DNA of 64,000 nt from an uncultured Maribacter sp. (GCF_947496775.1 NZ_CANMDU010000004.1:218426-282425), one strand, 5' to 3'; shown: positions 23,426 to 26,219, counted from the stretch's first letter. Translations and numbers: made by a program. The notes: a model not told the origin generated them from the sequence alone.

Positions 23426-24811
23426 ATGAAAAATAAAGTAAACATTACAGGAAAAGAATTAATCGATTTAGGTTTTCGTTCAGGAAAATGGTTTCCAGAA
23501 GCCATCGACTATATAAACACAAACCAATTAGAAGGTGAAGCTATGCTCGAGTTCTTAGAGCAATATCGCTTACCTCCTATGGTAAACTTACATGCAACTG
23601 CTGCTGAATTTGCTATAAACATCAAAGCAGAAAACCAATTGGAAGAAACCAATGTTAACTCCGTGGTAGAATCTATGAAGGTTTTAATGCGTACGCCTAC
23701 GGTAGTCAATGGTGCAGTTATGCCAGATGCTTGTCCGACTGGTCCTTCAGGAACAATTCCTGTTGGGGGTGTGGTAGTCGTAAAAAACGCCATCCATCCA
23801 GGTATGCATAGTGCAGATATTTGTTGTTCTGTAATGTTGACTGATTTCGGAAAAACGGACCCAAAACTAGTTTTGGATGCTGCGCATTCCGTAACGCATT
23901 TTGGTCCTGGTGGAAGACCACGTGGAAAACAATTTCAGCTGACCGAAGAACTATTAGCTGAGTTCAAGGCCAACAAATTATTGAGTGCCGATAAAGACAT
24001 AAGTCTCGCGAAGGAGCATTTAGGTACACAAGGTGATGGTAATCACTTCTTGTTTGTGGGTATTTCAGAAAAAACGGGTAATACTATGATGATTACGCAT
24101 CATGGTTCAAGAGCGCCTGGTGCCAGATTATATAAAAAAGGAATGCATATAGCTGAGCGATTCAGAAAAGATTTATGCCCTGCTGCCTTAAAACAAAATG
24201 CGTGGATTCCTTTTGAAACGGAAGAAGGACAGTTGTATTGGAACGCTTTACAAACCATAAGAAAATGGACAAAGTTAAACCACGAATGTATTCATAATGC
24301 CACTTTAGAAGTTTTGAAGATGGAAGCTGAAGACCGTTACTGGAATGAGCATAACTTTGTTTTCAAAGATGGAGATTTGTTCTATCATGCTAAGGGCGCC
24401 ACTCCTTTGGATGCGAAATTTATGCCTGATATTACTGGGCCTAGATTGATTCCTTTGAACATGGCTGAACCCGTTTTAATTGTCGAGGGTAAAACAACCG
24501 CAAACAATTTAGGCTTTGCACCACATGGTGCTGGTAGAAATATGAGCCGTACGCAACACAAAAGAAACAACGCCGATTTTACAAAAGAAGCATTGTTTGA
24601 TATAGAAACAGAAGGCTTAGATGTACGTTTCTTTTCTAAAGAGATTGACATTTCTGAATTACCTAGTGCTTATAAAAATGCACAAACAGTTCGTTCTCAA
24701 ATGGAAGAATATGGTTTAGGAGAGGTTATAGATGAAGTACTGCCTTATGGCTGCATTATGGCTGGAGATTTTCAGATCAATGCGCCTTGGAAGAGAAGGA
24801 GGAAGAAATAA
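23426..24811 (+). CDS. rtcB: RtcB-family RNA 3'-phosphate/5'-OH ligase (paralog 1)
   Basis: RtcB active-site motifs are present: DACPTG, GDGNHF, HHGSR, HNF and PHGAGR. The start is set at the ATG giving [17 protein letters not shown], which aligns with the RtcB2 N-terminus. The ORF-track TTG at 23402 is possible. Confidence 0.85.
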
Positions 24812-24836
24812 AAATTAATTTAGACAAAATAATACT

Positions 24837-26219
24837 ATGGAAAATTCACAAAATACAAGGCATACAATCTTTGAAGAAGAAGCTTTCCAAAGATTATTAA
24901 AAGAAATAGAACAGAATAATGGAACAGCTATGTTGATAGGTGGAGCCGTTATTGATAACATCAATGGATTAGAAGTAAAAGATATAGATATTGAAGTTTA
25001 TGGTCTTTCCTATGTACAACTTGTTGAGTTGATAGAAGGTTTAGATATGAATTGTAATCTGGTAGGTAAATCTTTTGGAGTTATAAAAACAGTCATTGCT
25101 AATTTCGAAATCGATATGTCAATCCCTAGAAGAGAAAATAAAGTAGGGATAGGTCACAAAGGATTTACCGTTGAATTAGATGCGAAAATGACGCCAAAAG
25201 AAGCAGGTAAAAGAAGAGACCTCACTATTAATAGCATGTATCTAAACTTACATACTGGAGAATTGGTGGATCCATATAATGGGTTGGCAGATTTAGAAAA
25301 AGGAATACTTAGAGCCACGAATGAACATACTTTTATAGAAGACCCTTTACGAGTTTTACGTATTATGCAGCTTTTACCTAGAAAAGGTAAATTAGTAGCA
25401 AAAGAAACGCTAGAGATTTGTAAAAAAATGGTTGAATTTTTTTCTGAATTACAAGCGGAACGCATTTTTGTAGAGTGGGAAAAGTTATTACTAAAAGCTG
25501 AAAGACCTTCTATTGGATTAGAGTTCTTAAAAGCTTCGGGTTGGTTAAAACATTTTCCTGAATTACAAAATTTAGTAGGATGTCCACAAAATCCTATTTG
25601 GCATCCTGAAGGAGATGTTTGGGTGCATACTTGTATGGTTATAGACAATGCGGCTAAACTAAGAGATTTGGTGCCTGAGGATTGGCGGTTAACTTATATG
25701 TTTGGTGCATTGCTACATGACATTGGAAAACCATCAACCACCACACCAGAACTAACGGCTAATGGGCATGATGTTGCAGGAATTCCTTTAGCTGAAACAT
25801 TTATGAAAAGAATTACTAATAATAAGTCACTTATAGAAAGAGTGAGTACAATTGTTGGGTTACACATGAGAGCAGGGCAATTATTTAATTCTAAGGCCAA
25901 AGAGTCTGCTTGGAAACGTCTGCATAATAAATGTAGGTTAGATATTTTAGGATGGCAAAGCAAAGCTGATTCAGCGGGAAGAACTGGTAGAAATGTTATG
26001 TTAGATAAGCATGGAGCATCTGAAAAGTGTTTTGAGCTATTTAAAGAATTTGGTAAAAAAGAGATTCAACGTGTTATTCTGGGTAGAGATTTAATTGCTT
26101 TAGGTCTAAAACCATCCGAAAAATTCGGAGTGATTTTAGACGATTGTTATAAAAAACAACTTGATGGTGCTAGTCGAGAAGAAATTCTACTTAACCTAAA
26201 AAATGCTTCTTTAAAATAA
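24837..26219 (+). CDS. CCA-adding enzyme-like class II nucleotidyltransferase with C-terminal HD phosphohydrolase domain
   Basis: The head-domain motif is GGAVIDNINGLEVKDIDIEV, with RRDLTINSMY and an HD motif (LLHDIGKP). It lies 25 bp downstream of rtcB1, suggesting an operon. Confidence 0.75.
   Translation: MENSQNTRHTIFEEEAFQRLLKEIEQNNGTAMLIGGAVIDNINGLEVKDIDIEVYGLSYVQLVELIEGLDMNCNLVGKSFGVIKTVIANFEIDMSIPRRENKVGIGHKGFTVELDAKMTPKEAGKRRDLTINSMYLNLHTGELVDPYNGLADLEKGILRATNEHTFIEDPLRVLRIMQLLPRKGKLVAKETLEICKKMVEFFSELQAERIFVEWEKLLLKAERPSIGLEFLKASGWLKHFPELQNLVGCPQNPIWHPEGDVWVHTCMVIDNAAKLRDLVPEDWRLTYMFGALLHDIGKPSTTTPELTANGHDVAGIPLAETFMKRITNNKSLIERVSTIVGLHMRAGQLFNSKAKESAWKRLHNKCRLDILGWQSKADSAGRTGRNVMLDKHGASEKCFELFKEFGKKEIQRVILGRDLIALGLKPSEKFGVILDDCYKKQLDGASREEILLNLKNASLK

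Follow-up and report, generated by a model that had tools for sequence, protein, structure and literature searches.

RtcB RNA ligases are widespread in bacteria; their natural substrates and partners are mostly not established. RtcB-centred RNA-repair operons with accessory nucleotidyltransferases (NTases) follow the framework of Burroughs & Aravind (2016), as relayed in PMC6514570 and PMC7824862, and operons that join RtcB to accessory NTases, TPR proteins and PrfH have been described, including the accretion of TPR proteins to RFH-RtcB pairs (PMC6514570). CCA-adding enzymes are counted among the RNA-repair NTases of jumbo phages (PMC7824862), RtcB2-PrfH repairs ribosomes damaged by colicin E3 in E. 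coli (PMC9304027, PMC9223846), and cyanobacterial tRNA L-arrays adjoin rtcB and are co-induced with it (PMC8421152). Here we analysed a 64,000 nucleotide stretch of DNA from an uncultured Maribacter sp. (NZ_CANMDU010000004.1, 218426-282425; 'the window'), in which a gene for an RtcB ligase, RtcB1, is followed by a gene for a class II tRNA nucleotidyltransferase, CcaL. The reading that we favour, and consider reasonably probable as a whole, is that these are two phage-derived RNA-repair enzymes made from one transcript, which together make up a cassette in a horizontally transferred, mosaic island that rescues damaged translation apparatus, with CcaL as an optional accessory.

The RtcB1-CcaL island is a variation on known RNA-repair operons and not a new type of system. 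As in the RtcB-NTase repair operons (PMC6514570, PMC7824862, PMC12776372), RtcB lies in a conserved neighbourhood with NTases of the Pol-beta superfamily, with sporadic phyletic spread, horizontal transfer and a link to conflicts involving RNase toxins. Unlike in the known operons, the NTase is a full class II enzyme, predicted to be CCA-adding, with an HD domain. Unlike in operons controlled by RtcR and sigma-54, the regulator is a WYL protein, and RtcA is not among the island proteins scanned. Classical healing-and-sealing systems (Pnkp/Hen1, T4 Pnkp/Rnl1) combine a 5'-kinase and a 3'-phosphatase with a 5'-phosphate/3'-hydroxyl ligase, whereas the island ligase is of the 3'-phosphate type and neither kinase nor ATP-dependent ligase domains turned up in the island. 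What sets the island apart is that a chromosomal RtcB, apparently under WYL control, shares its transcript with a phage-type CCA/HD enzyme, and that the two proteins have a terminal module in common. The exact RtcB-CCA linkage may already have been catalogued by Burroughs & Aravind (2016).

RtcB1 occupies positions 23426-24811 and CcaL positions 24837-26219, both on the plus strand. The RtcB1 open reading frame (ORF) extends upstream to a TTG at 23402; the ATG at 23426 is the start chosen in a first-pass annotation of the window. The two ORFs are separated by 25 nucleotides (24812-24836), and no terminator-like site was found in this gap. An ORF listing and Pfam searches agreed with the coordinates, shared strand, gap and domain calls of that annotation, and its proposal that the genes are co-transcribed is plausible, given a single strand and a short gap without a terminator-like site. 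CcaL has no palindrome of its own in the window (see below) and would depend on the RtcB1 promoter. We infer that in this Maribacter the two genes form one transcript, which would start from a promoter region shared with a divergent WYL regulator.

The phage-type ligase RtcB1 scores 129.9 bits against the Pfam RtcB profile (PF01139; cut-off 27) and matches PHROG 1075 over its full length. It is divergent, with only 28% identity to the second RtcB of the window (RtcB2), yet its catalytic site is intact. The alignment with P. horikoshii RtcB shows that the metal-binding Asp, Cys and His residues and the GMP-accepting His are kept, in the motifs SADICC (Asp and Cys), GNHF, HHGSR, EHNF and PHGAGR. 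From its family membership, RtcB1 is predicted to join 3'-phosphate or 2',3'-cyclic-phosphate ends to 5'-hydroxyl ends in a reaction dependent on GTP and Mn. The assignment as phage-type is based on 62-67% identity to RtcB of the Tenacibaculum jumbo phages PTm1 and PTm5 and 57% identity to RtcB of Cellulophaga phages.

CcaL has the head, neck, HD-containing body and tail of class II enzymes, and its Pfam matches to PolyA_pol (59.1 bits), PolyA_pol_RNAbd (32.8 bits) and HD (28.5 bits, cut-off 22) all exceed their cut-offs. The NTase motifs A-E (GGAV-D/KD-D, RRDLTIN, EDPLRVLR) are invariant across 26 family members, the invariant head residues being G35, G36, D40, K48, D49, D51, R126, R127, D128, T130, N132, D169, R172 and R175. 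In the same 26 sequences, H264, H294-D295, H343 and D378 of the HD domain never vary, and H256 and H311 hardly do. The first-pass annotation had regarded a degenerate HD motif as fatal to its proposal; the motif is intact both in this alignment and in that with the multifunctional E. coli Cca, where all CcaL HD residues have counterparts (33% identity through the HD domain). E. coli Cca combines CCA addition with 2',3'-cyclic phosphodiesterase, 2'-nucleotidase and phosphatase activities of its HD domain. CcaL resembles it in domain order and in the alignment of NTase motifs, HD metal-binding residues and flexible loop, the CcaL loop 'PRRENKVGIGHKGF' having the same length as the E. coli loop 'ARTERKSGSGYTGF'. 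By published criteria, a flexible loop of this length argues against CC-only activity. An AlphaFold2 model of CcaL (pLDDT 90.6) shows the class II head-neck-body-tail fold over the full length, and its best PDB folds in Foldseek were the 'tRNA processing enzyme' structures 3WFO-3WFS and the T. maritima CCA-adding enzyme (3H37-3H3A, 5HC9), with TM-scores of 0.61-0.70. CcaL is a predicted CCA-adding enzyme with phosphohydrolase activity.

CcaL also carries an extra C-terminal helical module that is not in E. coli Cca. Comparison of the RtcB1 N-terminus with the CcaL C-terminus by hhalign gave a probability of 95% (E 3.9e-8), and both proteins match the same part of PF13735 (tRNA_NucTran2_2) below threshold. 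The shared module is about 35-45 amino acids long, with the pattern I-x-G-K/R-D/E-L-I-x-L-G...Q-L-D/E-G. It is encoded at 23426-23560 in RtcB1 and 26060-26219 in CcaL and, more weakly, at 27271-27400 at the N-terminus of RtcB2. Its presence in both proteins hints that RtcB1 and CcaL may recognise one RNA feature or partner.

The distribution of CcaL was surveyed with family-specific peptide patterns in one genome per species, giving 251 matches among 185,579 species. In the best 80 of these 251 relatives, identities of at least 69% were confined to about 10 Flavobacteriaceae species, two of them Maribacter; one further close orthologue, in Psychroserpens, brings the total to about 11. With about 45 named Maribacter species in the NCBI taxonomy, CcaL is not genus- or family-wide as a close orthologue, unlike what is expected of the lineage's housekeeping cca. 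The next relatives (57-63% identity) come from jumbo-phage-like contigs 175-334 kb in length (one an IMG/VR viral genome), which carry many small unidirectional genes, phage markers, RlaP and sigma factors. In a neighbour-joining tree without support values the Flavobacteriaceae CcaL clade is nested among these phage-like sequences, and CcaL matches PHROG 2244 at 6e-64; identity to cultured GenBank phages is at most 36%. CcaL thus resembles the CCA enzymes of jumbo and huge phages (PMC7824862), some of its phage-like relatives also lying beside RlaP, but unlike those enzymes it is chromosomal, within an RtcB transcription unit and apparently under a cellular WYL regulator. None of 52 tRNA genes inspected encodes CCA, including what are evidently housekeeping tRNA-Ala and tRNA-Pro genes. 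CCA addition is therefore essential, and Maribacter species that lack the island must use another enzyme. The closest metagenomic RtcB1 island (L110, as loci fetched for comparison are designated; 92% RtcB1 identity) has no CcaL. Because its close orthologues are sporadic, its nearest relatives phage-like, the tRNA genes CCA-less and the L110 island without it, CcaL is very probably an accessory, phage-derived and horizontally moved paralogue and not the housekeeping cca.

The RtcB1-CcaL adjacency was then compared among loci. The first-pass annotation had held that absence of the adjacency from related genomes, if this were also the sole cca gene, would count against a functional pair, but the adjacency recurs: nine of 11 Flavobacteriaceae loci with a close CcaL orthologue, spanning about seven genera with differing flanks, have RtcB1 just upstream on the same strand. 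The genes are directly adjacent (about 25-72 nucleotides) in the window, L001, L004, L005, L006 and L060, while one or two small ORFs separate them in Bizionia and Lacinutrix (L007 8520-9969, L008 9233-9922 and L011 8501-9752), encoding proteins of about 200-230 amino acids for which Pfam gave no match. Judged by these loci, the adjacency exceeds chance.

The linkage is asymmetric, being strong from the CcaL side and rare from the RtcB1 side. RtcB1 neighbourhoods were counted in the best 80 of more than 561 close metagenomic relatives, 56 of which had at least 1.5 kb upstream and 56 at least 3 kb downstream of RtcB1. A divergent WYL regulator was present at 51/56 loci with the upstream flank. 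An RlaP pair was found at 23/56 loci with the downstream flank, as in the RlaP-rtcB operons (PMC12776372). Lower counts were obtained for at least three tRNA genes (12/56), Band-7 (9/56), RtcB2 (8/56) and PrfH (7/56), and CcaL was present at only 3/56 (L117, L124 and L126). WYL at 51/56 and CcaL at 3/56 mark the WYL-RtcB1 combination as the core unit and CcaL as a rare, optional add-on cassette. Cultured Flavobacteriaceae phages were considered as carriers of the pair and rejected, as PTm5 and phi38:1 have an RtcB1-type ligase with no CCA enzyme nearby. In viral contigs with CcaL, RlaP or a distant RtcB was present but no adjoining RtcB1.

CcaL homologues also lie beside other repair genes, namely RlaP in viral contigs and, only in the planctomycete Mariniblastus, a Pnkp-like gene. 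In the latter, a metagenome-assembled genome (L003 5070-7874), the gene immediately preceding a CcaL homologue of 59% identity encodes a 934 amino acid protein with KTI12/AAA_33 kinase and metallophosphoesterase domains. A 1016 amino acid protein with no Pfam match takes the same position in a phage-like 'Acinetobacter' contig (L002 4881-7931). A repair linkage for the distant homologues was rejected: their neighbours (gyrA, PPDK, HipA, an adhesin) are housekeeping or unrelated genes, and the linkage is therefore clade-specific.

Beyond the gene pair on which the first-pass annotation focused, the island extends over about 22.1-32.6 kb of the window, in the order WYL, RtcB1-CcaL, a 96 amino acid protein, RtcB2-PrfH-TPR, tRNA-Arg(ACG), a structured RNA and Band-7. 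Its G+C content is slightly raised, at 0.335-0.377 (22001-32000) compared to about 0.32-0.34 upstream. On the left flank is a VIT/TonB-plug-like protein of 1148 amino acids (18610-22056), common only to the Maribacter loci L004 and L005. The raised G+C and the distribution of the left-flank gene fit the insertion of a mobile island.

The WYL-WCX regulator (22157-23173, minus strand; Pfam WYL 35.4 bits, WCX 62.5 bits) is also matched by WYL models of PADLOC, which found no known defence system besides these generic models. It is divergent and upstream of RtcB1 also in L004, L005, L006 and L060. The intergenic region between the regulator and RtcB1 contains, at 23212-23234 and with three mismatches, a copy of the palindrome ACTACGCA-N7-TGCGTAGT; a second, perfect copy (ACTACGCATAATAATTGCGTAGT) lies past the tRNA at 30472-30494. 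Two sites in the window compare with 0.08 expected, and 0/100 shuffles reached two. Across the fetched loci there are 119 sites, and in 66/80 loci the palindrome is 48-220 nucleotides upstream of RtcB1. It is also found at cassette boundaries: past RtcB1, before RlaP in L004, before the structured RNA and Band-7, and immediately before and after CcaL in L117, L124 and L126. Equivalents of the second copy lie shortly upstream of the structured RNA, followed by Band-7, in L111, L116, L125, L147 and L152. The palindrome is thus a candidate WYL operator and/or cassette-boundary site, the latter for recombination or processing. The RtcB1 leader also contains a perfect 10 bp hairpin, GCTCTGCCGA/TCGGCAGAGC (23292-23321, plus strand), which is invariant in the Maribacter islands L004 and L005.

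All the remaining genes of the island are on the plus strand. ORF96 (26318-26608) encodes a small conserved protein with a GNSMLP motif and a faint Pfam match to Peptidase_S24 (E 0.18). It is 81-93% identical in L004, L005, L006, L060 and L123, a conservation above that of the enzymes. RtcB2 (27271-28662; Pfam RtcB 284 bits) is followed after 95 nucleotides by PrfH, release factor H (28758-29450; TIGR03072 232.2 bits, cut-off 166.65), and by a TPR protein (29441-29986) with TPR matches, an accessory of PrfH-RtcB modules. The order RtcB2-PrfH-TPR is conserved among loci. This 27271-29986 cassette resembles the RtcB2-PrfH module of E. coli ATCC 25922 (PMC9223846, PMC9304027), and its PrfH passes the equivalog cut-off; it differs in that RtcB2 scores 158 bits against a TIGR03073 cut-off of 271.8, and in that the cassette is a neighbour of RtcB1-CcaL and not the same pair. 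At 27141-27171 (plus strand), about 100 nucleotides ahead of the RtcB2 start, there is a strong terminator-like hairpin with a U-run, which could be an attenuator or leader for RtcB2-PrfH. A separate terminator-like site is present downstream of ORF96 (26758-26783, plus strand). A leader motif common to RtcB1 and RtcB2 was sought and rejected, as only words of 8-9 nucleotides were in common, which is not significant.

The tRNA-Arg(ACG) gene (30378-30451; ARAGORN, Rfam 56.5 bits) has an A2-C71 mismatch, and CCA is neither encoded nor present in its trailer. Over 98 aligned nucleotides it is 80.6% identical to the last tRNA region of the 12-gene array of L006, and it is what remains of a phage-like tRNA array. 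Such arrays are present in islands of relatives (L006 19749-20811, 12 genes; L011 2215-4844, 16; L008 737-3082, 15; L007 15246-15571, 4), and these supernumerary tRNAs in RtcB islands resemble the cyanobacterial L-arrays (PMC8421152). The island tRNAs are phage-like: their acceptor stems are AT-rich and frequently begin with a base other than G, and CCA is encoded in none. Band-7/SPFH (31451-32551; Pfam Band_7 94.9 bits) is the last gene of the island, and its orthologues are 66% identical in L001 and L011 and present also at nine metagenomic RtcB1 loci.

In 12/12 Band-7 loci, nhmmer placed the structured RNA 250-300 nucleotides upstream of Band-7. It is about 390 nucleotides long and in the window lies at 30765-31175 (plus strand); the other copies are in L001 (4440-4820), L011 (4843-5225), L111, L116, L120, L125, L143, L147, L152, L157 and L164. 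In the consensus structure, compensatory changes support 48 of the 78 pairs, and the paired share of cells is 94.7%; 0/500 shuffles and no slid control approached this. The RNA consists of a large 5' domain and two permuted tRNA-like modules, each with a closing helix, a T-arm, a capped acceptor stem and a D-arm. The T-loops of both modules are invariant (GGTTCGAATCC), and the capped acceptor-like stems, of 5-7 bp, lie between the T- and D-arm mimics. The Y RNAs of the YrlA type have the same T-arm/capped acceptor/D-arm topology (PMC4201824), and an RtcB island with a tRNA-mimicking RNA and a ligand-sensing regulator recalls rsr-yrlBA-rtcBA (PMC7790460, PMC4201824). Unlike that operon, the island has no Ro60/TROVE domain, RtcA or RtcR (CARF, sigma-54 activator) among the proteins scanned. 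Identification of the RNA as YrlA itself was rejected, as the Rfam YrlA model (RF02553) gave 43.4 bits (E 3.8e-7) for the window and 28.4 bits for L001, below the threshold of 69; the two mimic modules, the large 5' domain and the tie to Band-7 also set it apart. Weak tRNA-like and tmRNA-like Rfam matches at 30865-31068 fall within the RNA. Decayed tandem or dimeric tRNAs were also considered, but the closing helices and the capped acceptor show compensatory changes, which speak against this. It is probably an undescribed family of tRNA-mimic RNAs.

In the reading of RtcB1 and CcaL as parallel repair enzymes, damage to tRNAs or ribosomes by a toxin RNase or a phage-defence nuclease would relieve control by the WYL regulator. 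The N-terminal module of RtcB1, akin to the tail of CCA-adding enzymes, would direct the ligase to tRNA, where it would directly seal breaks in the tRNA body that have 2',3'-cyclic-phosphate and 5'-hydroxyl ends. CcaL would work alongside the ligase and not ahead of it, at the tRNA 3' terminus, where the HD domain would strip off a 2',3'-cyclic phosphate or 3'-phosphate that blocks the end and the NTase would restore CCA. Its substrates would be host tRNAs that have been trimmed, along with the phage-like tRNAs without CCA that islands supply. Because the Maribacter loci L004 and L005 keep CcaL without an island tRNA, CcaL would be more than a helper of island tRNAs. RtcB2-PrfH-TPR would deal with stalled or cleaved ribosomes. 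Of this reading, the gene anatomy, intact motifs, fold, affinity to phages, conserved adjacency and sporadic distribution are observed, while the substrates, the order of action and the regulation are proposed.

A number of observations weigh against this reading. CcaL is found in only three of 56 RtcB1 islands, and RtcB1 can function without it; in two Arenibacter species CcaL has no RtcB in its vicinity; and shuffling of cassettes, instead of biochemical cooperation, may account for the pairing. The HD activity of CcaL would also compete with RtcB for cyclic-phosphate ends. In addition to its C-terminal module and its accessory, phage-related character, CcaL differs from E. coli Cca in having Ile in motif A in place of the canonical Arg (GGAVID, not GGAVRD). 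It falls below all NCBIfam equivalog cut-offs, its best match being to the E. coli Cca family NF008137 (177.7 bits against 451), with 133 bits against 438.8 for TIGR02692. The top PDB sequence matches come from the 4WBY/1VFG and the 3WFO groups alike, which we take to include A-adding as well as CC-adding enzymes, and CCA-adding, CC-only and A-only activities cannot be told apart from the sequence or the modelled fold. Finally, the housekeeping cca that this organism should also possess is presumed and not seen.

Four other explanations were weighed. That CcaL is the sole housekeeping CCA-adding enzyme of this organism, beside an RtcB gene by chance, would fit its database label 'CCA tRNA nucleotidyltransferase', the failure of tblastn with CcaL and E. 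coli Cca queries to find a second class II NTase in the 64 kb window or the 189 fetched loci, and the position of distant members (48-54% identity; Ignavibacteria and DPANN archaea) next to housekeeping genes such as gyrA and PPDK. It is nevertheless extremely unlikely in view of the restriction of close orthologues to two Maribacter and about 11 Flavobacteriaceae species, the need for CCA addition to every tRNA, which the genus must meet with another enzyme, the phage-borne nearest relatives, the L110 island and the slightly raised G+C of the island in which CcaL lies (0.36-0.38 against about 0.32-0.34). The first-pass annotation had proposed an end-healing-and-sealing pair, which in its literal form has CcaL trim the phosphate and refill nucleotides before RtcB1 seals the same break. 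The intact RtcB site and the full-length NTase with its HD domain support that proposal in part; an obligate sequence of healing and then sealing is not supported. One transcript with a gap of 25 nucleotides would suit such a sequence, and for RlaP-type enzymes it has been proposed that an NTase replaces nucleotides ahead of ligation (PMC7824862, PMC6514570). However, it is chemically unlikely because RtcB requires a 3'-phosphate or 2',3'-cyclic phosphate together with a 5'-hydroxyl, while the HD and NTase products are 3'-hydroxyls: the HD phosphoesterase would destroy the RtcB substrate, and the NTase product could not be sealed. The RlaP preprint explicitly states that enzymes leaving a 3'-hydroxyl are incompatible with RtcB (PMC12776372). 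Furthermore, no kinase or cyclase (RtcA) was among the island proteins scanned, and the absence of CcaL from 53/56 RtcB1 loci, compared to the frequent WYL regulator and RlaP pair, speaks against an obligate pairing. We therefore regard the sequential model as very unlikely.

More consideration is due to the possibility that CcaL is a maturation helper for the island's own CCA-less tRNAs and not a repair enzyme, its adjacency to RtcB1 reflecting cassette packing. Arrays of 4-16 tRNA genes accompany CcaL in L006, L007, L008, L011, L124 and L126, that is at 6/12 CcaL loci compared to 12/56 RtcB1 loci overall; the compared loci are phylogenetically related, however, so that this enrichment is only suggestive. 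The AT-rich acceptor stems and lack of encoded CCA point the same way, as do the jumbo-phage-like contigs of the closest CcaL relatives, with tRNA-rich jumbo phages as a parallel. On the other hand, L004 and L005 have CcaL and no island tRNA, the window has a single tRNA with a mismatched acceptor stem, and the host's own enzyme must already supply CCA for all tRNAs. Plain maturation would not need the strictly conserved HD residues either, and homologues adjoin Pnkp-like and RlaP repair genes. We consider this explanation possible but doubtful. The remaining alternative places the structured RNA among the substrates: CcaL would add CCA to it after RNase P cleavage or, in another version, tag damaged tRNAs with CCACCA for decay. 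The capped acceptor-like stems between the arm mimics are in keeping with the first version, and YrlA of M. smegmatis, which has a 7 bp acceptor stem, undergoes RNase P cleavage and gains CCA in vivo (PMC4201824). Yet the RNA follows Band-7 and not CcaL: among 12 CcaL loci it is present only in the window, L001 and L011, and the other nine loci with the RNA have no CcaL. No sequence feature bears on CCACCA tagging. This alternative is accordingly judged quite improbable.

Going beyond the parallel-repair reading, one may speculate, though we think it rather unlikely in full, that the island is a WYL-controlled, cassette-built 'translation first-aid kit', in which the palindrome marks interchangeable cassettes: RtcB1, CcaL, the RlaP pair, RtcB2-PrfH-TPR, phage-type tRNA arrays, and a Ro-independent double tRNA-mimic RNA with Band-7. 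The module of RtcB1 and CcaL would then be a common tRNA-elbow-binding module, which would draw ligase and CCA enzyme to a common set of damaged tRNAs or to the mimic RNA, giving a previously undescribed, coordinated repair of tRNA body and tail of phage origin.

With a CCA enzyme and tRNAs as partners of one RtcB paralogue and PrfH as the partner of the other, the island points to separate ligases for tRNA repair and for ribosome repair. That a phage-derived accessory CCA/HD enzyme falls under the same control suggests that marine Flavobacteriaceae are under selection from attacks on the 3' ends of tRNAs. As a damage sensor, the WYL regulator with its defined palindrome provides an alternative to RtcR that can be tested, and the Y-RNA-like molecule, having no Ro60 alongside, would extend the spectrum of tRNA mimics known from bacteria. 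In L008, the RlaP pair is followed by a gene for a DUF434+DUF5616 protein (13192-14613).

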